NCBI GenBank assembly: GCA_000165345.1
Contig: CM000436.1
Coordinates: 576,001 to 640,000, forward strand
Reading direction: 5' to 3'
Length of the DNA stretch: 64,000 bases
Shown here: in pieces, positions 659 through 28,512 of the stretch
Numbering within the stretch: the stretch's first letter is position 1
Layout: the number at the start of each line of letters is the position of its first letter
Program-made: the position numbers and the translations under genes
Notes under the pieces: model-generated
The model's input: the letters and a program-made list of their open reading frames with translations, nothing else
Databases searched by the model: none
Told to the model about the DNA's origin: nothing

Positions 659-1336
659 CTAAAGCTCATCCTTTGACTCTTGGTCGCTATTTTCTCCTTG
701 ATTATTTCTAGAAGAATGTAAAAGCATCATGATAGAGTTGAAGCTCCATAAATTATCACTACTGCTCTTGCTAACTATGGTTACTTCATATTGACCAACA
801 ATTGGACATCTTGGACAATTTCTGTTGTCAAATATGTGTCTTTTACTAACTGTTAGATACCCTTTAGCTTCAATATTATAAAGTCGAATCTTATCTTTAA
901 CATCAATAGTTTGTCCTGTATTCTTCTTTTCACATTCAACTCTAAAATAGCCACTAGATTCACCAGAACCACCAAAAATCTCAATTTGTCTACTTATCAT
1001 TGATTTTGAAGACTTATTAGATTGCACAAACTTCTCAGTAACTGAATGTAGTAAACGAATAGACTCCCCACATAATACAGGAAAGCCTGCACCCTTATAC
1101 TCAGCATCAGCTTCTCTAATGTAAAAATGTCCTTCTGAATCCAAATCTTTGCTACAAGTGACAGCCTGGTTACCATTTGCCCATGTTATCTTTGTCGTAT
1201 ATAAATGACATTTTGTATTTTGATGTAATACTGATACTGTACTTCCATAAGTAACCAATTCATTTTCTTCAGAATAAACACTTGAGAAAACCAGACCAAA
1301 GAAAACCACAACAAACCTCGTAAATAACCCAAACAT
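659..1336 (-). CDS. SDF2-like MIR-domain ER-lumenal protein (signal peptide, C-terminal KDEL)
   Basis: 225 aa. N-terminal hydrophobic signal (MFGLFTRFVVVFFGLVFSSVYS). Three MIR-like repeats (VTYGSTVSVLHQNTKCHLYT… / VLCGESIRLLHSVTEKF… / GQYEVTIVSKSSSDNLW) that follow the pattern of stromal-cell-derived factor 2. The C-terminus is …ESKDEL, an ER-retention signal. Confidence 0.7.
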   Translation of the reverse strand: MFGLFTRFVVVFFGLVFSSVYSEENELVTYGSTVSVLHQNTKCHLYTTKITWANGNQAVTCSKDLDSEGHFYIREADAEYKGAGFPVLCGESIRLLHSVTEKFVQSNKSSKSMISRQIEIFGGSGESSGYFRVECEKKNTGQTIDVKDKIRLYNIEAKGYLTVSKRHIFDNRNCPRCPIVGQYEVTIVSKSSSDNLWSFNSIMMLLHSSRNNQGENSDQESKDEL

Positions 1337-1951: not shown

Positions 1952-3496
1952 ATGAATATGGAGGACGAAAAAATGGAAGATACAACGATTAATAGTGATT
2001 CAGATGATCAGAGTGAGAGCAGTATGACTATGTTTAATAGTGCAAAAGAGCTGAAGGATGCTGGAAATGAGAGTTATAAGGGTGGAAATTACTCAGATGC
2101 AAGAGAAAAATATGAAAAAGGTTTAGAATTATTAGAGAAGATAGATCAAAAAGATGATGAAAAGGAAGGATTTGGAGAGGATGAAATGTCAGAATTACGT
2201 CAAAGCTTACAGTTGAATTTAGCAATGATATATGTGAAGATTCAGGAATGGTCAAAAGCTATTCAAGTAACAGGACAAGTATTGAAGAAGAATTCAAAGA
2301 ATGTCAAGGCTTTATATAGGAGAGGATTAGCTAGACTAGGCTTTGGAATGTATGAGGAGAGTAAGGAGGATTTCCAAAATGTATTAAAGTTGGATCCAAG
2401 CAATGCTGATGCTCACAGACAATTGAAGGTTTTACGCCAAAAGATTCAGGAAGATAATGAGAAGAATAAGAGTGGGTTTAGTAGAATGTTCCATGGAGGT
2501 TTGTACTCAGATAAGCAGCAGGATGTTGAGAAGAAGAAGAAAGAAGAGAGAGAGAGAAGAATTGAAAAGTATAGTCAATATCTTGCACAAATAAAATCAA
2601 AGAATTCTGAAATTGGCTCAGATGATGAAGAGGAAGAGGCTATGCCTTTTGAAGAATGGGAAAAGAAGGAGATAGAAAGGGAGAAGGAGGAGGAGAGGGA
2701 GAAGACAAGAGCAAATGAAAGGAATGCAAAGGAACTTAATGAAAAAAAGCCAGCAACCATTATTTCCAAGAAGAATAATGTAAGTAATGATGATGTAGAT
2801 TTGGATGAAGAAGATCTAAAGATTCTACAAGAAACTAAGAAAATGGGGTATTGCTACTTTAAGAGAGAGTTAACAGAACAAGAGAAAGAATTGAACAGGC
2901 AATTCACTCCAACTCTGATTAACAATAAAGATTCTTATTCTTGCGGTGCATCTCAGCAAAATGACTTGAGCTCTGCAGATATTGACAAATCAAGAGTTGG
3001 AATAAGCTCTTGGAACTCTAAAGGTACAACCTTTGAAGATAAAGATGTTTCTGAAACCGCTAGGTCCACCTTAAAGAGGATACTTTTAGAAGGGGATGGT
3101 AGGCATTTTACTGGAAAGGTTAGTGAAAAAGGAGATTTAAATGTTTCAATCTCAATTGAAAGTGTTGATAATTTATCTGGAGAAGCCTCTGTTGCAATGA
3201 TTCGTGGAACTAGAAGATTTCTCTTTGACTTCTCTGTCACATTAAAATGCGACTACACTCTTGATAATAACGAGAATGAAAAGTATTCATTTAGTATAAA
3301 CATTCCATCTCTAACTTCCATGTGTAATGAAGATGACGTTTTCGGTATTAAAGATTGTAGTATCAACTTTACAGGAAAACACAAGCATAATCACGATCTA
3401 ACTCTTATCAAGGATTTTGTTTTCAACAGCTATTGCCTTATACATTTAAAAGATTGTATTAATTTACTTACTAACGAGATTAACTCGCAATACTAG
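1952..3496 (+). CDS. TPR-repeat protein with a C-terminal Aha1 N-terminal-like domain (putative Hsp90 co-chaperone)
   Basis: 514 aa. The N-terminus carries 3 TPR repeats of the Hsp90/Hsp70-clamp type (AKELKDAGNESYKGGNYSDAREKYEKGLELL … KALYRRGLARLGFGMYEESKEDFQNVLKLDPSNADA). These are followed by a long charged E/K-rich linker. The C-terminal ~150 aa (ISSWNSKGTTFEDKDVSETARSTLKRILLEG…GEASVAMIRGTRRFLFDFSVTLKCDY) align to the Aha1 N-terminal domain pattern (NNWHW.E.D...W....L…GEASI…RKGKLIFFYEWSVKL). Confidence 0.65.
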   Translation: MNMEDEKMEDTTINSDSDDQSESSMTMFNSAKELKDAGNESYKGGNYSDAREKYEKGLELLEKIDQKDDEKEGFGEDEMSELRQSLQLNLAMIYVKIQEWSKAIQVTGQVLKKNSKNVKALYRRGLARLGFGMYEESKEDFQNVLKLDPSNADAHRQLKVLRQKIQEDNEKNKSGFSRMFHGGLYSDKQQDVEKKKKEERERRIEKYSQYLAQIKSKNSEIGSDDEEEEAMPFEEWEKKEIEREKEEEREKTRANERNAKELNEKKPATIISKKNNVSNDDVDLDEEDLKILQETKKMGYCYFKRELTEQEKELNRQFTPTLINNKDSYSCGASQQNDLSSADIDKSRVGISSWNSKGTTFEDKDVSETARSTLKRILLEGDGRHFTGKVSEKGDLNVSISIESVDNLSGEASVAMIRGTRRFLFDFSVTLKCDYTLDNNENEKYSFSINIPSLTSMCNEDDVFGIKDCSINFTGKHKHNHDLTLIKDFVFNSYCLIHLKDCINLLTNEINSQY

Positions 3497-4220: not shown

Positions 4221-5163
4221 ATGAGAGATAATAAAGGCAGAGAAGAAAACTATCCAGTAGTTCCAACTGATAGAATACTGAGGAATTTTAAGCAGTTATC
4301 CCATCATAATGATTCAATTTCTCAAATGGCATCTTGGCTTTCTTTCTATAGAAGTTCAGGAGAACAACTTTGTTCTCTTTTCGGAGAAGCTTTTGTAGAT
4401 AAAAGTTTGAGAGAGGAGGAAAGATTGGCAATATTTTATGTATTTCATGAAATGGTTACTAGAGCAATTACAAATGATGATGAATCGAGGAAGTTTTTTT
4501 TAATAGGATATGAACAATTTCTTTTAACAGCTGCTCCCATTATTAGTAGACTAACTTTTGAACAAAGATCCCCATACTTACAGGTAGTAAGACTCTGGCA
4601 ATCTCATCAAAGATTCCCTCAAAATGTATGTGAGAGATTAAGATTATTATTTAATTCTCAGTCTGGTAAGTTAATTTAATTAAGAAATTAAATTGAAATT
4701 GATAATTTTAATGTTAATTTCTTTTTCTTTTCTTTATTTGTAATACTTTTTAGGAAATCAAGAAAGCTTAAGGAGCCCATCTTTATTAGACAAAAGGGAC
4801 AAAAAATTTACTTTAGATGTGATAAAATCCTTAAATAGAATCAAAGAAGGATATGAACTTGCAGTCAAGGCTGGCAATATTAGTAAAAAATTAGCTTCAA
4901 ATTCTAGCTCTAGCAATGATGTAACAAATTCAAATAGTGTATTAACCGGAACGTCATCTCCAACAGAATCACAAGAGCCTATAATCCCAGAAGATGACAC
5001 AGAAAATATGATTAGACAAAGCATAGAACAATACAAAGAAAGTCTGGATAAGATTACAGACGCATCCATTCTCTTATCCCAATGTCTTCAAGATGAACTT
5101 AAATCATTTAACGATATCAAAAGAATTCTTGAGGATATCTCAACAGAAGACAAAGAAGAATAA
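4221..5163 (+). CDS. CID (RPR) domain protein, Rtt103/SCAF8-like, 2 exons
   Basis: Exon 1 is 4221..4665, ending at a GTAAGT donor at 4666. An 88-nt intron follows; AG acceptor at 4752-53. Exon 2 is 4754..5163 and stays in phase, joining the two ORF-track pieces 4221..4679 and 4819..5163. The N-terminal ~140 aa resemble the CTD-interacting domain of Rtt103/Pcf11-family proteins. The C-terminal half is a coiled-coil/acidic region. Confidence 0.6.
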
Positions 5164-5345: not shown

Positions 5346-6134
5346 TTACTCTTGTTCATCGTCTTCAGTAATCTTTCTAGCGAGGTAGAATCTAAGATGA
5401 CCGGAGCCACTGCCTTCCAAGGGGTATTCGAGTTCAAGAGGTTGATTCTCACTCATACTGAGCTTTACGCTATTGCTCAAAGGAGTAGCCTTGGCAAAGT
5501 TATTTAGGTATCTAAGTGAGAATACTAATTGGCATGGCTCTGAAACATCAAGTGCAACAGCTTCAGAATCTGCTCCCTCTTTTGGTCTCAAAATAATACT
5601 ACCAGAACCTAAAGACCCTTTAGTTGAGAATCTGACGTTTTTGCTAGTTACATCAATGGAGAGAGAGTCTGAGAATTGTGCCATATCTCTACATAGTCTT
5701 TGGAATTCATTAGATGGCATAGTTACTACAGATGAAAAGCTTGTTTCTGGGATTTGAAGACTATCTTGATCAATAGAAATCAATGTTAGTTCAAACTCTG
5801 AAACTCGATCTCCATTTGGCGTTTCGAATATGAAAATCAGACTCTCAGAGTCATCATCATGTCTAAGTAAAACTTGATCATCATTTGAACATAACTTTAG
5901 TAGTTTCACTACATTTTGAGTATTTAATCCCAAAGTTCTATTCTTATCGCATCTATATCTCTCAAAAGCAGTATCCTTCAAGTATAAGCCAACTAAAGAA
6001 ACATGGCTATTGTCCATTGCTTGGATAGTTACTCCGCTTTCGTTACATTCAAGATTTACATCACTGACCAAATTTGTGATAGCTTCAAAAACCTTCCTCA
6101 AAATTCCTCCGTTTGATAATCTAGCTTCAAACAT
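5346..6134 (-). CDS. PCNA: Proliferating cell nuclear antigen (PCNA)
   Basis: 262 aa, collinear with eukaryotic PCNA along its full length (MFEARL…AMDNSHVSLV…YRCD…KLMDID…LRYLNNFAKATPLS…LKFYLAPKI…DE). This is the typical length for PCNA. Confidence 0.9.
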   Translation of the reverse strand: MFEARLSNGGILRKVFEAITNLVSDVNLECNESGVTIQAMDNSHVSLVGLYLKDTAFERYRCDKNRTLGLNTQNVVKLLKLCSNDDQVLLRHDDDSESLIFIFETPNGDRVSEFELTLISIDQDSLQIPETSFSSVVTMPSNEFQRLCRDMAQFSDSLSIDVTSKNVRFSTKGSLGSGSIILRPKEGADSEAVALDVSEPCQLVFSLRYLNNFAKATPLSNSVKLSMSENQPLELEYPLEGSGSGHLRFYLARKITEDDEQE

Positions 6135-6877: not shown

Positions 6878-8203
6878 ATGAGCACAATAAGATATTTATT
6901 TAATGAAGCTGGTACTTGGAACAAAATTACCAATTTCATTTCGTCAAATCATCGAAGTGTGAATTCTCAAAGTACATTAAGGAATTTCGTCAAGAATTTG
7001 GGGGCTGCAAGCAGTAATAGTCAAATAAGGTCATCTACCGAACATATATCATCAAGAATTGAATCTTCATTTTCAAGTGCAGATAGAACTCAATCCTCTA
7101 AATTCTTTTCGGGCACATTTTCAGTATTATCAGAATGCTTAGTGAAAATAACTGACAATTTAGCTGATAATGAACTTCCTGCGAACATATTAACACAGAA
7201 AACAAACTCAATACAGATGTTCACACGAAAGATGATTGTTTTATTCTTGTTTGCTGGTTTTTTAGGATTATTTCCGGGTAGCTTTTTTCACAATCGAACA
7301 CCAGGACTTGATTTTACAGGGTTTTTTAGTAATAGGCGTGCATCCTCAAATCAACTAAGTAGCTTTTTAAGCTACTTTAATACTATGGGGAGTAAAATAT
7401 CTCAAAAAGATCCAATGGTTAATGAGTATGTAATTATTCAAAGACACCATAGAACACCAATAAAAGAAAATATGTTAATAAGTTCAACTTTAGGTCTTAA
7501 ACAAACGCAGATAATTAGTGGGTTCATGGAGAGTCATAATCCAGGAGGGCATGTGGTGGAAGCAATCTTTGCTAATAAGGTATATGGCAGTGCAACATTA
7601 CAAAACTGCATGAATCAGGAAGAGATAGTGATGACAGTTGTCCCTGAAACTTTAATTGGACGCTTTTTCTTAGACGATTTACATGATGAAGATTCAGTTA
7701 CCATAAGGGGAGTAATGAGATATTCGAATTACAAGGGATTTGGTACGGATAAATTTACCTTTCAATCGATTAAAGAGTCGGAAATGTACATGTCAATACC
7801 AAGAGTCTATGCTGTAGTTGACGCTTTATCCGGAGGTTCTAGATTTAGAGAATTTACATTGGATTATGCCTTGAGAGAAATAAACAAACTTATATCAGCA
7901 TTATGCGATGATTTCTATGGGGAGTCTGAGGAAAGAGATCGCAACCAATTTGTTACAGGATATTGGGGTGGAGGAGTTTTTGGGGGAGATAATCAATATA
8001 AATTTATTTTACAATTAATAGCAGCTTGCGTCTGCAATAGGCAATTGGTATATTCAGACGGGCTAAACAGGCTGGATGTTAACCAAATTAGGCAGATTGA
8101 AAGTAAATATACGACTTGTGGCCAACTCTCTGATGCATTCTTTAAAAAACATAGAACTAATAGTTTTAGTAAAGGGAACGCTCTCAAAGTGATGTTAATG
8201 TAG
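6878..8203 (+). CDS. Hypothetical protein with one internal hydrophobic segment
   Basis: A 441-aa uninterrupted ORF starting at ATG, with coding-like composition relative to its flanks. It has a Ser-rich N-terminus and a hydrophobic stretch (IVLFLFAGFLGLFPGSFF). No family recognised. Confidence 0.45.
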   Translation: MSTIRYLFNEAGTWNKITNFISSNHRSVNSQSTLRNFVKNLGAASSNSQIRSSTEHISSRIESSFSSADRTQSSKFFSGTFSVLSECLVKITDNLADNELPANILTQKTNSIQMFTRKMIVLFLFAGFLGLFPGSFFHNRTPGLDFTGFFSNRRASSNQLSSFLSYFNTMGSKISQKDPMVNEYVIIQRHHRTPIKENMLISSTLGLKQTQIISGFMESHNPGGHVVEAIFANKVYGSATLQNCMNQEEIVMTVVPETLIGRFFLDDLHDEDSVTIRGVMRYSNYKGFGTDKFTFQSIKESEMYMSIPRVYAVVDALSGGSRFREFTLDYALREINKLISALCDDFYGESEERDRNQFVTGYWGGGVFGGDNQYKFILQLIAACVCNRQLVYSDGLNRLDVNQIRQIESKYTTCGQLSDAFFKKHRTNSFSKGNALKVMLM

Positions 8204-16471: not shown

Positions 16472-19325
16472 ATGGAGAAAATTATTTATTTATTATTAAT
16501 ATCAATAAACTGGTTGGTAGGAAATGCTATTTCACAGTTAATTGTGTCAGAACAAGAAATGTGTATGAATGGACAATGCAAAAAAATGTTGAACGGTCAT
16601 TTAGTTATACAGAATAATCAGGTAGGCTTATTTTTTTTTAGTAAAATAATAATTGAAAATTAAATATTTTGAAATTAATTAATTTTATAGGATGTATCGT
16701 TGAATTTTGGATCATCAGAAGTAAATGGAAAGAATGCAAAAGAAGCAGACCCAGGTTCTAATGGATTTAAGATTACAATAAAGAAGTCTCCAATATTAAT
16801 TGCATATGATTTGAGTTATATTTCAACTTTATATCATGATTTTCAAGAAGATATAAAATTGTTTTCGTTTACTCAAGTTGAAGGTGACCCATCTAGATTT
16901 TGTAATCATGAATTGAGAAGTTGTCAGAAAGTGAGAGACGAGTATTTATATGGAACACCAAATTGTAAGTTTTAATAAATTATTTTGAATTTAGCAATAT
17001 CTTAATAAAACATATTTAAAATGATTTATAGTGCCACCAGGTCAAAAAAATTGGACTCAAGAAACTCCAATACCACCTGGATCACAAGGATCGTGTTGTT
17101 GGTGTCCAGAATTATATGTAACGGTAAGTTCAATTGAATTAAAGTGCTGGAGGAGGGGCTTTTTATTAGGGATTAAGGTTTTTTATATTAGAGAAATTAA
17201 TGACATATTTACTCCCAATTAAATAATTTTTTTTTTTAGATAAATACTGATGCACCATTTTCAAGAGCTACATTACATTGTTCATGGATACGTAAGTTTA
17301 ATATATTACAAATGGAAATAATTTATTGAACTATTTTAAACTATTTATAGAGCAAAGAATGTGGTGGAATGTTTACTTATCGAAGTCATGCCCAGTTTGG
17401 ATACCACCATGGTGGACAGCTTTTAGAATAGGTGGATGGAACTGGCAATACTCATTAGAGGTTGAATTATCTTGGTTTAGTCCAACAGAATCATCAATTA
17501 ATAAGTTATCAAGTACAGAATTGGAAAATATGGAAAATGAATGTAAGAAAGAAAATAAGGATTCCACAATAGATTGTTCAAGATTAAGGCATAAAGAATC
17601 AGGAATTCAGACTTCTGTACATACATTAAATTCATCGTCTCCATCATTCTATGATCCAAATTTTGGAGCTTCAGTACAGGTAATAAGCTCAGGACCACCG
17701 TTTGGGAGTGCTAATGCAAAGGATTTGAATGGTTATTACATGTTACAACCAACATTTTCACCAAAAGGGATGCCTGCTAGTATTTCAATTCCTCCTTTAA
17801 GAAGTGGGTGTGGAAAAGCTTCAAAAAACCAAACAGAAGAGGAAATAAATGATTGTTTAAAGCCAACATTAATTATTCCTCCAGAAAATGCAGACTTTAC
17901 AGGAGTTTCATGTGATAAGATAGGAACAAGTGTTCATACTTGGAGTTCTGTGAACGGTAGATTTTGCTATCATCCACCTGGTACTTGTCAAAGAGCTCAG
18001 ATAGCTCACTTTTATAAGAAAGTTATAGAAGATCATTCACTTGGAAAGATTTCACAATATTCAGTAAGAGCACAAAATTCTGGTTCTCCACAGTTGATTT
18101 TGGATTCATTAGGAGAAATTGGTCATGAGGAGATGGATCAAAATGATATGGGAAATATAACTAATATACAATCACGCAGATTCTTTTTGGGATATAATTT
18201 TGATTCAATCTTTGACACAGAAATAATGTTCTCAGTCGAAGCTTCTTCTGTGTCTTGGGTAGCAACATCTTCTCCTGGAATTATTACATTTATAGAACCA
18301 CCACCTTTGGAGGCTTGCACAGCAATGAGTAGTTTTGGCTGTCCTCTAAAGGTTTATATTAAGAATAGTGGTAAGTTTGAATATATATATATATACATTT
18401 CGAATTGAATTGAAAATAACTTAACAAAAATATTCTATAGGGGATATTGATTCAGGTTTTGTAGTTCAAATACCTTATTGTACAAAGTCAGGAGTACAAA
18501 CAAGTGAGGTAGGTTTGTATTTAATTCATTCAAATTTATATAATTAATTAATTTAGGTTGATCCAATAATGGCACAAACAAAGAAGATTAAAGCCAATTC
18601 AATAGGAATTTTTACTTTTGTATTGGGAGTTTCCGTATTAACTGGGAGTGAATATAAGTGCGTGGTAAGTATATATATATTTAATGCATCCAATATATGC
18701 ATGCATACAATAAATGCATGCATGCAATATATTGGTAAACACTATTAAATAACAATATTAAATATTATTTCTATTCAAATAATAGGTTGTGTTGTATAAT
18801 TCATTTTCAGTTCAACTGGATCAGAATATGTTCACTTTTTCAACAACTTCTACAACGGTAAGTTTATTTGAAAGAAGATATCGTTTTTGAATCTTAATAT
18901 TAATTATTAATATAAATATTTTGATATCAAATTGAAAATTTAAGATTTCAATTGCAAGTTCAGATTCAATAATTTCTGATGTAGTAGTGAATCAAACTTC
19001 GTTAACAAACAAAAAGTTTGATTCTATGTTTACAGGAAATAAATGTATTTCTTGTGGATTAAATTTTTGGTGTTTAATAGCAAATAGTAAGTTAAAAATG
19101 AATCATTCTTTTAAAATTTAAAATAATTAAAATAAATTTCAGTTAAAGATTGTATTATGTTAGGTATTAAATGTATAGGGATAATACTTGGATTGATAAT
19201 AGGATTTGTTATATTATTAAAGTTGATAAAGATAATACTTGAACTACGTAAAAATAAGAAAATTGAAACAAGGATAATTAATAATAGCCAAGAAAGTTTA
19301 AGTCAAGGTATTAATAGGAAGAATT
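16472..19325 (+). CDS. HAP2: HAP2/GCS1-like gamete-fusogen candidate: 10-exon gene encoding a signal-peptide, Cys-rich, single-pass membrane protein
   Basis: Exons, all with GT..AG boundaries and consistent phase: 16472..16621, 16691..16964, 17032..17123, 17240..17291, 17351..18370, 18441..18508, 18557..18664, 18785..18856, 18945..19086, 19141..19325 (TGA stop). The model is about 720 aa. The N-terminus is a signal peptide (MEKIIYLLLISINWLVGNAIS). The ectodomain carries SQGSCCWCPELY and GRFCYHPPGTCQRAQIAHFY motifs, which resemble the conserved HAP2/GCS1 domain (CC.C … C.RF… H.F). A C-terminal TM helix (IKCIGIILGLIIGFVILLKLIKIIL) is followed by a short basic tail. The ORF track shows only the exon-sized fragments 16472.., 16700.., 17031.. 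and 17326... Confidence 0.6.
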
Positions 19326-25386: not shown

Positions 25387-28300
25387 TTAAAATAGATAAT
25401 ATATAGAAAAAGAAAAACAAAAGAAGAATTCATAAATTAACTTTGGAAATAAAATCTGCCAAATCATTATATTCTCCCTTAATATAATTATTCCCAAAAC
25501 TGTAAATAAGTATTTTGATAATATTATCCCCATCATCCAAATCTTTGGATTCCTTAATCCCAATGATGGAAGCTTAAGCATAATTGATAAAGAAAATAAA
25601 TGAGATGTCAAAAAATATATTACCAATAATTGAGATATTATCAAATGGAAATAATCCAATCCTATCAATCCAACATATTCTGGTATCGTTTCCAACTTTA
25701 ATTTATTACCCAAATTATAGAAATTATTCAATGATAATAAATATAATAAAATAATATTTTCGATACCTTTAATAGGTACCGAAATTAATCTATTATTATT
25801 ATTATTATTATTATTATTTTCTTTTGAATTATGATGAATTATTCCGTCCAATCTTAAACTCTCTATTGAAATTAATTGTATTATACTAGAAATTGAATAT
25901 GGTATTATTAATTCATTCTTTAATAAAAATATTAAAATTAAATGATGATTAAGCCATTGATTGATTAATAATCTATAATCTACAGTATTCTTTGTTTCTA
26001 TTGCACTTTTATCCAATTCTTTAGATAATTTTAATCGATGTCTTTTTATAAATAAATCATATATAGTCTTTGTTAGTTGTATTAAAGCCAAAATACGTAC
26101 AATATTATTATTGTTAATCCAATTAAACCAAACATATATTGGTACAATAACCATGATTAATATATTCCATCTATTTAATATATTCTTATAAACTATTAAT
26201 AATAAAAATAAATAAAATATTAATATAAATAATATAGTAATTTTAGATTTTAATAATAAATGAATATTAAAAAATCCAAAATTTAGAATTTGTTGAATTT
26301 CATAATCAAATATAAATGTAAAACGTATCAATATTAATTGTATAAATGGTAATAACATTTGTCTTAAATTATTTTTTGAACCAGAAAATAATAATATAAT
26401 CTGATAAGATATTAATAAAAATCTCACAACTTTTCCTTCATTTCTTGCAAATGATGCTGAATAACTACAAAAATGTATTAAACATAATAAAGTCATTATA
26501 CACCAATAAAAATTCCATCTCAATTCTTTATTATTCAAACTTAATTTAAAGATATTACAATAAAATGAATGTATCTCATACCGGTATCTTATCAATATGT
26601 GCATCATAATAAGCGTGATAATTGTAAATGTAAAAAAATTACAATAATATATAAAATCTTGGGTAAAAAATAAATTTTGAGAAAATAGATATATTCCAAT
26701 TAAATTAAAAATGGATGATATTAAAATAATAATTAAATAAATAGTAAATAATTGACCAGATTTGAATTGTATTGTATTGTATATAGATAATTGTTGTTTT
26801 GATGATGCTTCATTAGATTCTGAAGATGAAGATAAAGATAAGAATCCTTTTTTTTGATTAAACATGAATCTTGACATGCTTAAATTAAAGCTTGGAATAA
26901 TAATAATTGATACAAATACAAATAATGAAAAAATGATAAGAAATCCTTGAATAATTGATACCCAATCAAACTTGGATTTGTCTTTTAATAGCTTATTTTG
27001 AATAAGCAAAGCAAATTCATATGATAGTTGATAATGTTTCTTACATATACTGATCAAAGTTTCATAATTATTTTTTTGATTACTTTCACCGTTATTTTGA
27101 GCCCTTAATAAGTCAGCATTTTTAACTAATTGATAACTTTTATAGAATTCATAATACTTGGATTTAATTTGAGCGTCCTGTAATCTGATTTGACCTCCTA
27201 AGTTATTTAGGAGTCTGTTAAAGATTTGAAAAGCATTATTATGCATTACTTTTGCGTAATTAATTTCTTGTAAAAATTGTTGATGATGATCTTGATCATC
27301 ATGATCATCATGTTCGGTACCGCTTTTTAGATGGATCTTAAAATCCTCTCTAAATATACCCAAGTTATTTTCTGGTATTGGAATTCCTAATGATGAGGAT
27401 ATAATTGGAATAGTATCAATTTGATTAAGAACTTTAATGTTTTTAATTCTTTCATTTAAAGATACTTGCTCGGAAATTTTATTTTTTACTGGCAAATCCC
27501 ATTCGGGTATCTTTTCCATTGAAGTAATAAAAGGAATTGTAGAGAATGCAAAAAAGCCCGCGTTTGTTTCGGTAATGCAGGAGCCTCCGTGCCCGCCATT
27601 TTCATTCTGACCGTGATCTCCGAATAATAAAAATAAGATTTTTTCAGATTTATTATTTTTTTTAATAAAATTATGGATTTGTTGAGTAAATTCTTTAGGA
27701 GTGAGATGATCATTTTTATTGTTGATTTTGAGAAGTAGTTGTAAAGTTTTGACAGCTGTTTGATCCATTTGGGAGAGTTTATTCTTCATGTCATCGTTAT
27801 AAATACCAGAATAATGTCCAATATGATCAACCCCAATAAAATGATTTACCATAAACTTCCAATCATTATATTTTTCATAATGATTATTTGTATGATTTAA
27901 GAAAAAATTAATTTTATCTTCAACAAATTTATCCAAGCTATCAAAATCTCTGATATCTAATGATCCAAATTTATGATTATAATGAATTAATTCACTATAT
28001 AATAGATCCCATGTATCATCTCCAGCGACTACAGATTTTTTATTTTTTAAGAATAGATTTTTTAAAATAGTTGGAGTTTCTGCGTTATTTTTAGGTCTTA
28101 ATGCAGAAATAAGATCAAATATTCCAGGATTTTCTCCTGACATGAGAGATTTGATTCTAAAGGTTGTTAAGGTTGGGAAATCTGCTTTGAAATTAAAGAA
28201 ACGAATATGATTTTTTAATTCATCACTTCTCATCAATTCGTTTAAATACTTAAATTGATTATGAATTTGATTATTAGGATTTTTCGTTTCAATATTTAAA

Positions 28301-28512
28301 TAATCAATTCTTAAGGCATCAATAATAAAGTAAACTACTTTATCATATATAGGTTCAATTTCAAAATATTCAATTTCCGGTAATTTGAAGTCTTGATTAA
28401 GCGAACCATTTTGTTCTAAATTAGTTTTTTCACCATTAAATCCAATAAAAAATAATACTGTTCCAAGTAGGAGTACTGTTAAATAAGTCACAATTAGAAT
28501 TTGCTTAAACAT
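25387..28512 (-). CDS. GPI ethanolamine-phosphate transferase (PIG-O/PIG-G/PIG-N family; alkaline-phosphatase-like N-domain plus multi-TM C-domain)
   Basis: 1041 aa. It begins with an N-terminal TM helix. The lumenal catalytic domain carries …FIIDALRIDY… and …FLLFGDHGQNENGGHGGSCITETNAGFFAFS…, which are diagnostic of the GPI EtNP transferase sulfatase-fold family. A dozen or more hydrophobic segments follow in the C-terminal half. Confidence 0.75.
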   Translation of the reverse strand: MFKQILIVTYLTVLLLGTVLFFIGFNGEKTNLEQNGSLNQDFKLPEIEYFEIEPIYDKVVYFIIDALRIDYLNIETKNPNNQIHNQFKYLNELMRSDELKNHIRFFNFKADFPTLTTFRIKSLMSGENPGIFDLISALRPKNNAETPTILKNLFLKNKKSVVAGDDTWDLLYSELIHYNHKFGSLDIRDFDSLDKFVEDKINFFLNHTNNHYEKYNDWKFMVNHFIGVDHIGHYSGIYNDDMKNKLSQMDQTAVKTLQLLLKINNKNDHLTPKEFTQQIHNFIKKNNKSEKILFLLFGDHGQNENGGHGGSCITETNAGFFAFSTIPFITSMEKIPEWDLPVKNKISEQVSLNERIKNIKVLNQIDTIPIISSSLGIPIPENNLGIFREDFKIHLKSGTEHDDHDDQDHHQQFLQEINYAKVMHNNAFQIFNRLLNNLGGQIRLQDAQIKSKYYEFYKSYQLVKNADLLRAQNNGESNQKNNYETLISICKKHYQLSYEFALLIQNKLLKDKSKFDWVSIIQGFLIIFSLFVFVSIIIIPSFNLSMSRFMFNQKKGFLSLSSSSESNEASSKQQLSIYNTIQFKSGQLFTIYLIIILISSIFNLIGIYLFSQNLFFTQDFIYYCNFFTFTIITLIMMHILIRYRYEIHSFYCNIFKLSLNNKELRWNFYWCIMTLLCLIHFCSYSASFARNEGKVVRFLLISYQIILLFSGSKNNLRQMLLPFIQLILIRFTFIFDYEIQQILNFGFFNIHLLLKSKITILFILIFYLFLLLIVYKNILNRWNILIMVIVPIYVWFNWINNNNIVRILALIQLTKTIYDLFIKRHRLKLSKELDKSAIETKNTVDYRLLINQWLNHHLILIFLLKNELIIPYSISSIIQLISIESLRLDGIIHHNSKENNNNNNNNNRLISVPIKGIENIILLYLLSLNNFYNLGNKLKLETIPEYVGLIGLDYFHLIISQLLVIYFLTSHLFSLSIMLKLPSLGLRNPKIWMMGIILSKYLFTVLGIIILRENIMIWQILFPKLIYEFFFCFSFSIYYLF

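Follow-up and report, generated by a model that had tools for sequence, protein, structure and literature searches.

A TPR clamp and an Aha1-type N-domain in a single Cryptosporidium polypeptide: member of an annotated family and putative Hsp90 co-chaperone

Aha-type co-chaperones and the chaperone binding protein family

The strong stimulation of Hsp90 ATPase by canonical Aha1 is driven by three elements: the NxNNWHW motif, the RKxK element and the C-domain. NxNNWHW, described as the best conserved element among Aha-type co-chaperones, is needed for their action in vivo (PMC6426937); the C-domain has been described as a module that anchors the N-domain; and the N-domain in isolation binds apo Hsp90 only and stimulates weakly. 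An Aha1-type N-domain joined to a TPR domain has also been described, in the Plasmodium protein PF13_0190/PF3D7_1334200 ("chaperone binding protein, putative"), which was assigned this architecture in 2011 and which a 2021 review tabulates as a second 'PfAha1'. PF3D7_1334200 is expressed, is present among chaperone-related proximity hits, and is upregulated along with other proteostasis genes.

The window analysed here, a 64,000-nucleotide stretch of Cryptosporidium DNA, carries at 1952..3496 (+ strand) a gene whose product is, by its sequence, the Cryptosporidium member of the same family. An earlier note on this DNA had proposed that one polypeptide here combines a TPR clamp with an Aha1 N-domain, and so it does: the reading frame listing gives a single, complete and uninterrupted exon of 514 codons plus stop, and the 514-aa product matches TPR_1, TPR_2 and Aha1_N in Pfam. 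As a TAG lies in frame two codons 5' of the ATG, M1 is the earliest possible start. The gene model corresponds to the database protein, and the C. hominis counterpart P0001, already named for both domains, is 99% identical and of equal length, with 4 substitutions. An antisense open reading frame (2953..3240, 95 aa) was treated as a chance occurrence within the coding region.

The fusion is by no means unique to this gene: it is already known, as a feature of an annotated family and not as a new kind of system, and its detection from the letters alone is a correct re-discovery of the architecture. The proposed survey of alveolates found the architecture in all apicomplexan genera sampled and in chromerids. 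Conservation of the family extends over Apicomplexa, chromerids and ochrophyte algae: there are orthologues in Toxoplasma, Eimeria, Babesia, Theileria, Besnoitia, Plasmodium, Vitrella, Chromera, diatoms and further ochrophytes, and every named organism in the sample that has the family belongs to one of these three groups. Homology is colinear over the full length, the middle block and the SxWN block described below being shared, and the same domain order recurs in more than 12 genera, transcript-derived sequences included. An exhaustive family search returned 1,308 cluster representatives; conservation was counted on 91 long family representatives, and Pfam domains were surveyed in 100 members. 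In a second subfamily, the same Aha1_N clade is joined to another clamp-type TPR (Hop-TPR1/PP5/SGTA class), closest to those of Hop TPR1, SGTA and CHIP. That two types of TPR are attached to one Aha1_N clade speaks for selection of the very combination of a TPR clamp and Aha1_N.

The family is widespread and well conserved, and is missing from standard lists of parasite co-chaperones. Our literature search found no functional study of any member; to characterise the family would fill a real gap.

The TPR clamp, the linker and the Aha1-type domain

The protein begins with an acidic, Ser-rich tail (aa 1-27; 1952..2032, + strand) of low pLDDT and poor conservation (column mean 0.29), followed by a domain of three TPRs (aa 28-165; 2033..2446, +). 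TPR_1 and TPR_2 both exceed their Pfam cutoffs, at 44.0 and 50.8 bits, with three stretches each over approximately aa 28-165. The AF2 model is confident over aa ~21-180 (pLDDT >90, and ~98 for the three-TPR domain) and has seven helices over aa 24-181, that is, the three TPRs plus capping helix that characterise EEVD-binding TPR co-chaperones. The segment comprising the seventh, capping helix and a conserved tail (aa 166-190; 2447..2521, +; model helix 152-181) is covered by the alignment to P. falciparum 2FBN and FKBP51, which reaches through the tail; as in FKBP-type TPR co-chaperones, tail residues F180, Y185 and D187 are kept, at 85-89% of the family. The closest TPR in the PDB sequence search is indeed of the FKBP51/52 type (2FBN, E = 9e-21; FKBP51, E = 1e-18), with PP5, AIP, RPAP3, SPAG1 and Cyp40 as further near relatives.

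The two-carboxylate clamp is complete and is nearly invariant among the 91 representatives: K35 (85/91), N39 (78/91), N89 (87/91), K119 (90/91) and R123 (91/91), the last two aligning with FKBP51 K352 and R356. The claim that the three TPRs are of the type that binds EEVD is borne out by these residues. Cryptosporidium Hsp90, we assume, ends in MEEVD. Sequence alone does not tell Hsp90 from Hsp70 as the preferred partner of this TPR. Pfam gave no FKBP_C or cyclophilin match at E ≤ 10; the name 'peptidylprolyl isomerase' carried by several orthologues in UniRef is unsupported for this protein because the PPIase domain is absent, the likeness to immunophilins being limited to the TPR part.

Beyond the TPR tail lies an E/K/R-rich linker (aa 191-282; 2522..2797, +). 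D, E, K and R make up 59% of aa 186-264, AF2 predicts two long helices there (186-220 and 233-264), and the orthologue alignment shows F233 and W236, the aromatic residues of a 'FEEWEK' motif, to be invariant. The long E/K-rich linker noticed earlier is present as this charged helical stretch, but the region is more than a spacer: within it lies a family-specific conserved block, DLDEEDLKILQETKKMGYCYFKRELTEQEKELNRQFTP (aa 283-322; 2798..2917, +), with a mean conservation of 0.55 in the alignments, a pLDDT of 56-76, and near-invariant K296, Y302, F303 and P320 (92-97% of representatives). Searches with this block yielded only noise in Pfam at E ≤ 10 (GBP_PSP 0.22, Ntox15 0.02) and in the PDB (titin 0.059), and its profile drew from a database of 5.8 billion proteins 12 short fragments of the same family and no other architecture; the two named fragments come from Cyclotella, a diatom, and Choristocarpus, a brown alga. 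A variable spacer rich in Ser, Asn and Asp follows (aa 323-349; 2918..2998, +), with a conservation of 0.18 and predicted to be disordered (pLDDT <50).

The assignment of the C-terminal ~150 aa to the Aha1 N-domain is upheld by profile and by fold. Aha1_N (PF09229) matches aa 363-482 with E = 3.2e-14 and 53.7 bits (gathering cutoff 23.6), and is matched by 100 of 100 family members. The fold itself, on which Pfam, the PDB profile search, AF2 and Foldseek agree, occupies aa 361-514 (3032..3493, +), where the protein ends, and is modelled at pLDDT ~90 as a helix, a long curved antiparallel sheet and a C-terminal helix. The 11 best Foldseek matches in the PDB are all Aha1 N-domains (3N72, 6XLB, 1USV, 1USU and 7DMD among their entries), at probability 1.00 and 16-20% identity; target-normalised TM-scores are 0.33-0.68, and 0.54-0.68 for chains of the isolated N-domain. 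The PDB profile search with this C-terminal domain likewise returned Aha1 chains only. The AHSA1/START-like C-domain (PF08327) is absent, with no Pfam match even at E ≤ 10 and none among the 100 family members, and no canonical two-domain Aha1 of Cryptosporidium was found in the literature.

As judged from the alignments, conservation in the Aha1_N half is centred on two sites with a function in canonical Aha1: the position of NxNNWHW and the hairpin bearing D53 and RKxK. The first is occupied by an SxWNxxGT(T)[W/Y/F]EE[K/R]D block, here SSWNSKGTTFEDKD (aa 350-366; 2999..3049, +), which surpasses every other stretch of the family in conservation (mean 0.68) and in which S352, W354, N355, G358, T360 and E362 are each kept in ≥98% of the 91 representatives. 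We take this block to lie where NxNNWHW does, judging by the known sequences of yeast and human Aha1 and by the start of the Pfam match, at aa 363 and profile position 1. NxNNWHW as such is not found: the segment reads SSWNSKGTTF, with a family consensus of S.WN..GT(T)W, and only the last aromatic position is in common. The two blocks singled out in the earlier note are where it placed them (SSWNSKGTTFEDKD at aa 352-365 and GEASV..RGTRRFLFDFSVTL at aa 410-431), but with one aromatic shared, its 'NNWHW-like' was overstated.

The second site is a conserved β-hairpin (aa 406-430; 3167..3241, +), located by HMM alignment to 1USV, 1USU and 7DMD and by column counts. It is the second most conserved part of the Aha1_N domain, at 0.54 as against 0.27-0.31 for the rest, and its G410-E411-A412 ... 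I417-R418-G419-T420-R421-R422-F-L-F-D aligns with G52-D53 ... R59-K60-G61-K62-V63-I64 of yeast Aha1, where the corresponding hairpin contacts the middle domain of Hsp90 and bears RKxK. In the family columns yeast I64 is matched by an invariant arginine, R422; I64 is reportedly a hydrophobic contact with Hsp90, and if this is so, the mode of docking may differ. The literal RKxK is not found either: yeast R59-K60-G61-K62 becomes I417-R418-G419-T420, and the family consensus is V-R-G-K-K-R, so that the Cryptosporidium protein has IRGT followed by RR where the family at large has VRGKKR. The element is modified and not lost, because its glycine is retained and the equivalent of K60, the only residue of RKxK that robust stimulation requires, is still basic (R418 here, R in 59/91 representatives). 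E411 corresponds to the acidic residue D53 of yeast and E67 of human Aha1 and is D or E in 75/91 representatives; the human E67K substitution abolishes Hsp90 binding.

Possible roles at Hsp90

A bivalent Hsp90 co-chaperone, as the earlier note foresaw, is a reasonable prediction, since the architecture is as it described and the EEVD-clamp residues are present and near-invariant. The reading that we favour, with moderate confidence, is a cytosolic Hsp90 co-chaperone of the Hch1 kind, held by its TPR on the EEVD tail where canonical Aha1 would be anchored by its C-domain; that both modules bind Hsp90, in what geometry and with what kinetic direction, we infer. The N-terminal FKBP-type TPR, its clamp being intact, would hold the C-terminal EEVD peptide of Hsp90, and the long charged helical linker would let the Hch1-like Aha1_N domain reach the middle domain of the same Hsp90 dimer. 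Docking there would be through the conserved hairpin, with E411 and the basic loop R418-G-T-R-R422, and would place the invariant SxWN..GT.EEKD segment where canonical Aha1 shows NxNNWHW to the Hsp90 N-domains. With no Aha1 C-domain in the protein, the anchoring that this domain gives in canonical Aha1 is probably supplied by the TPR–EEVD tether; the description of the C-domain as an anchor for the N-domain provides the rationale for such a swap. The net outcome would be a modulated Hsp90 ATPase or conformational cycle. Stimulation of the ATPase is plausible; as NxNNWHW, the literal RKxK and the C-domain are all lacking, the phrase 'activates the ATPase' used earlier goes further than the sequence does.

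Hsp90 is a drug target in apicomplexan parasites, its co-chaperones setting client specificity and kinetics, and a natural Aha1-type N-domain tied to the Hsp90 tail would test current models of Aha1, in which the C-domain is mainly an anchor and NxNNWHW and RKxK act jointly. It is conceivable, though we rather doubt it, that the family constitutes a third class of Aha-type co-chaperone: besides the TPR–EEVD tether in place of the C-domain anchor, SxWNxxGTxWEEKD and xRGKKR would have co-evolved as substitutes for NxNNWHW and RKxK, the middle block would make an extra contact, and the effect on Hsp90 would differ in kind from that of Aha1 or Hch1, for example as engagement independent of nucleotide state or as a brake on the cycle. 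Were this true, the family would offer a parasite-selective handle on Hsp90, given its apparent restriction to apicomplexans, chromerids and ochrophytes and given that we know of no human equivalent.

In most TPR co-chaperones the effector is the non-TPR domain, and here that domain might have diverged to a task other than Hsp90 docking, such as binding of a client or partner or chaperone-like holding, with the TPR recruiting Hsp70 or Hsp90 to the partner. The replacement of both Aha signature motifs by different, equally invariant sequences would suit such a divergence, as would the invariant Arg at the yeast I64 position, the conserved block at aa 283-322 that has no counterpart in Aha1, the identity of only 16-20% to Aha1 N-domains, and an Hsp90-independent chaperone-like activity of human Aha1, reported in PMC8037086. 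We nevertheless regard it as unlikely: the surface conserved is the very hairpin with which canonical Aha1 contacts Hsp90, the D53/E67 acidic residue is retained, and profile and fold searches alike lead to Aha1 alone.

Less likely still is a Hop-like bridge, with the TPR clamp on the EEVD tail of Hsp70 and Aha1_N on Hsp90, coupling the hand-over of clients to the Hsp90 cycle. Clamp-type TPRs bind the tails of both chaperones, the TPR of the second subfamily is nearest to those of Hop TPR1, SGTA and CHIP, all of them Hsp70 binders, and the TPR of the Plasmodium orthologue earned it a place on a shortlist of SGTA-like factors; but the TPR of the Cryptosporidium protein is nearest to the Hsp90-preferring FKBP51/52 type, down to the seventh helix and tail. 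That shortlisting goes back to a PfGet3-BirA proximity fraction that yielded four PF3D7_1334200 peptides, against none in the control; its authors named the protein a candidate Sgt2/A, a TPR factor of the tail-anchored protein (GET) pathway. Such a role appears very improbable for a protein that has an Aha1_N fold where SGTA would have its dimerisation domain and Gln/Met-rich client-binding domain, neither of which is present; several unrelated TPR co-chaperones were in the same fraction, so the labelling may reflect general proximity to chaperones. That two neighbouring genes have been read as one, an idea with nothing behind it beyond the long low-complexity linker, can be dismissed, and the single gene originally claimed accepted, on the unbroken frame, the stop just 5' of the ATG and the colinear orthologues, transcript-derived ones among them, of so many genera.

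Likeness to known systems

With FKBP51/FKBP52 and P. falciparum 2FBN the Cryptosporidium protein shares the TPR clamp, an insert between TPR1 and TPR2, the seventh helix and an F..MF...Y tail (E = 1e-18 to 9e-21), but it has no detectable FKBP or other PPIase domain. With canonical Aha1/Ahsa1 (yeast Aha1, human AHSA1, PfAha1 PF3D7_0306200) it has in common the N-domain fold and the general place of the two conserved elements; it differs in its N-terminal TPR clamp, in lacking both the C-terminal AHSA1 domain and NxNNWHW, in its altered RKxK and in a sequence only 16-20% identical. Yeast Hch1 is closer in one respect, being a lone domain of Aha1_N fold with no Aha1 C-domain, and likewise keeps the acidic equivalent of D53. 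Hch1, however, has NxNNWHW and RKxK in literal form and no TPR (PMC6426937), whereas the Cryptosporidium protein has neither literal motif and adds the TPR clamp, the long linker and the extra conserved block.

The nearest system is that of Plasmodium PF3D7_1334200 and its orthologues, which have the same FKBP-type TPR, charged linker, ETKKMGYCYF block, SSWN..GTT.EEKD block and Aha1_N domain; E-values against the Cryptosporidium protein run from 4e-65 (Besnoitia) to ~1e-34..-37 (Plasmodium). Nothing essential is different: the Cryptosporidium member has F361 for the usual W/Y and no W at 369, and the insert in its Aha1_N sheet is shorter than in the PF3D7_1334200 family.

A TPR clamp and an Aha1 N-domain in one reading frame

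The window is AT-rich eukaryotic DNA (GC about 30%) in which an uninterrupted ORF of 514 codons (1952..3496, + strand) encodes the window protein; an in-frame TAG two codons 5' of the ATG makes M1 its earliest possible start. The earlier note had read this ORF as a TPR clamp fused, via a charged linker, to an Aha1 N-domain, and comparisons with Pfam, PDB sequences, AF2 models and Foldseek bear this out. Pfam places Aha1_N (PF09229) at aa 363-482 with E = 3.2e-14 and 53.7 bits (gathering cutoff 23.6), and TPR_1 and TPR_2 each match three stretches above their cutoffs. Among PDB sequences, aa 28-198 align best with FKBP-type immunophilin TPR domains (P. falciparum 2FBN, E = 9e-21; FKBP51, E = 1e-18), followed by those of PP5, Cyp40, AIP, RPAP3 and SPAG1; the PDB chains matched by a profile of the C-terminal half are all Aha1 (7DMD, 1USV, 1USU, 6XLB). 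Both folded domains are modelled with confidence by AF2, and the 11 best Foldseek PDB matches of the C-terminal model are all Aha1 N-domains, at probability 1.00, with target-normalised TM-scores of 0.33-0.68 (0.54-0.68 for isolated N-domain chains) and 16-20% identity. The interdomain segment, aa 186-264, is 59% charged, with two long helices predicted. The domain evidence thus shows the earlier description of the sequence to be correct; the interpretation drawn from it, a bivalent co-chaperone tethered to the EEVD tail of Hsp90 and activating its ATPase, is partly supported. With the ORF uninterrupted, an artefact of the gene model can in practice be discounted, and a 95-aa antisense ORF inside the coding region (2953-3240, - strand) is taken as a chance ORF.

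The neighbouring genes, for a CID-domain protein (4221-4679, +), PCNA (5346-6134, -) and a poly(ADP-ribose) glycohydrolase (6878-8203, +), are an ordinary eukaryotic context, functionally unlinked to the TPR–Aha1_N gene. Elsewhere, 659-1336 (-) encodes what looks like an SDF2-like ER-resident protein of 225 aa, which is hydrophobic at its N-terminus, contains a MIR domain and ends in KDEL; 17326-18408 (+) matches part of the male gamete fusion factor HAP2/GCS1 (Pfam profile positions 155-399 of 515) and, given the TTG at its start, is probably a fragment of a longer gene; and a 1041-aa ORF at 25387-28512 (-) gave no Pfam match at E ≤ 1e-5.

Family membership and phyletic spread

By sequence, the window protein belongs to the 'chaperone binding protein' family of TPR–Aha1_N proteins and has every block that its members share. 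The C. hominis protein, of equal length and 99% identical (4 substitutions), is already named for 'Activator of Hsp90 ATPase N-terminal' by one source. Full-length two-domain orthologues occur in all Cryptosporidium species sampled and, beyond them, in a diatom, in Besnoitia and in Plasmodium ('chaperone binding protein, putative'). The P. falciparum member, PF13_0190 (PF3D7_1334200), appeared under that same name, with Aha1_N and TPR_1/TPR_2, in a 2011 domain-context paper (PMC3090354); since the architecture is also annotated for the window protein, it was already known, and what is added here is the replacement of motifs, the missing C-domain, a newly recognised conserved block and how widely the family is distributed.

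The C-terminal-half profile retrieved 134 proteins from a word-indexed database, and when 1.84 billion cluster representatives were searched exhaustively, 1,308 matched at E ≤ 1e-3. Of these, 647 reached E ≤ 1e-10 and 76 reached E ≤ 1e-30; the top matches are mostly 450-690 aa long, with the matched region at the C-terminal end. Pfam scanning of 100 members found Aha1_N in all of them, TPR in 51—many of those lacking a TPR match are visibly truncated, on short contigs—and the Aha1 C-terminal domain in none. Named members comprise apicomplexans and relatives (Toxoplasma, two species of Eimeria, Babesia, Theileria, Besnoitia, Cardiosporidium, Rhytidocystis and a gregarine), the chromerids Vitrella and Chromera, the diatoms Conticribra, Nitzschia, Cylindrotheca, Attheya and Cyclotella, and other ochrophytes (the xanthophyte Tribonema, the dictyochophyte Octactis and a brown-algal fragment). 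All named members in this small sample are apicomplexans, chromerids or ochrophyte stramenopiles, groups with red-alga-derived plastids of their own or in their ancestors; none of the ~30 clusters looked up bore the name of a ciliate, dinoflagellate, plant, animal or fungus, which does not imply absence.

Some UniRef orthologues (C. ubiquitum, Toxoplasma B6K996, Babesia, Chromera, Tribonema, Octactis) are called 'peptidylprolyl isomerase'. Despite these names we reject the window protein as an immunophilin: Pfam detects no PPIase domain in it, and the name therefore seems to have been transferred from TPR likeness to FKBP-type immunophilins.

Conserved blocks of the C-terminal half

Conservation across the Aha1_N half of the family is very uneven, averaging 0.68 in an SxWN block (aa 350-366), 0.54 in a hairpin (aa 406-430) and 0.27-0.31 in the remainder of the domain. 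The consensus of the first block is S.WN..GT(T)[W/Y/F]EE[K/R]D, with S352, W354, N355, G358, T360 and E362 each at least 98% conserved; the Pfam match begins at aa 363. By an inferred rather than a computed match to the yeast and human Aha1 sequences, this block probably occupies the position of the canonical NxNNWHW. The earlier note had spoken of an NNWHW-like block: the last aromatic residue appears to be shared, the rest of the motif not. The hairpin corresponds in HMM alignment to yeast G52-D53...R59-K60-G61-K62-V63-I64. E411 falls on D53 (D or E in 75 of the 91 long representatives of the family), I417 on R59, R418 on K60 (R in 59/91), G419 on G61, T420 on K62 (K in 58/91) and R422 on I64 (R in 79/91).

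Canonical Aha1 binds the Hsp90 middle domain through its N-domain; its RKxK is dispensable for binding and required for robust stimulation, while NxNNWHW, the most conserved element, is required in vivo (PMC6426937). Within RKxK it is K60 that matters, maximal stimulation by R59A and K62A staying wild-type (preprint 10.1101/2025.06.10.658861), and human Aha1 E67K abolishes Hsp90 binding. Joint replacement of both motifs would fit the reported cooperation of K60 with NxNNWHW. Given these changes in the motifs, and an Arg where yeast has I64, the C-terminal half may have diverged to a role outside Hsp90, a reading that we consider unlikely, though deserving of some weight.

A further conserved block, ...ETKKMGYCYFKRELTEQEKEL...P, lies within the 'linker' at aa 283-322 (window 2798-2917), between its charged part and the Aha1_N domain. 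Algal members have LRGYKKTSDGRTTSYF.RE..E.EK.LIG.I.PK, and K296, Y302, F303 and P320 are near-invariant in family alignments. Neither Pfam nor the PDB gave a meaningful match, and a database profile search found the block in no other architecture, returning short fragments of the family only, among them one from a diatom and one from a brown alga. Speculatively, it could be a distant counterpart of 'GEGDPRWIVEER', the peptide that precedes NxNNWHW in metazoan Ahsa1.

Proposed anchoring on Hsp90 and likeness to Aha1

The two-carboxylate clamp positions of the window protein are K35, N39, N89, K119 and R123, conserved in 85, 78, 87, 90 and 91 of the 91 representatives, respectively. K119 and R123 align with K352 and R356 of FKBP51, and the FKBP-type likeness extends past the seventh helix into the tail, where F180, Y185 and D187 are conserved. 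The TPR might prefer Hsp70, making the protein a Hop-like bridge; this we think quite improbable. A second subfamily, with members some 400 aa long (P0118, P0133 and P0142, found by database search), has a TPR of the Hop-TPR1/PP5/SGTA class followed by a short Ser/Thr/Pro-rich linker and the same middle block and Aha1_N clade, which supports the TPR–Aha1_N pairing itself being functional. The clade is thus seen fused to two distinct classes of clamp-type TPR, which may have arisen either by divergence or in separate fusion events.

Our literature search found no binding, ATPase or genetic studies of any family member. PF3D7_1334200 is entered without reference as a second 'PfAha1, ATPase activator' in a 2021 review table (PMC8616389), is one of a group of proteostasis genes whose expression is raised in artemisinin-resistant isolates (PMC9019836), and receives no mention in two recent reviews of parasite Hsp90 co-chaperones. 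It was also recovered in the PfGet3 proximity-labelling fraction and, because of its TPR, shortlisted as an SGTA-like candidate (PMC8629386); a GET-pathway role rests on this labelling, but other TPR co-chaperones were recovered by it too, and we give such a role very little credence.

The isolated Aha1 N-domain binds apo Hsp90 only, and the C-domain is a conserved anchoring module (PMC13156637). The window protein finishes at the Aha1_N fold and so lacks an AHSA1 C-domain; on the simplest reading a TPR–EEVD tether would substitute for it as anchor, and the N-domain and upstream segment would engage Hsp90 in a related, non-identical way. Like canonical Aha1, the protein retains the acidic residue on which binding depends and is basic at the K60 position, and conservation in its family peaks at the two functionally important places; unlike canonical Aha1 and Hch1, it has neither the literal NxNNWHW nor the literal RKxK motif, and, unlike canonical Aha1, it lacks the anchoring C-domain. 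Its closest working likeness, as far as sequence can suggest, would be an Hch1-type, N-domain-only Aha co-chaperone provided with a TPR anchor.
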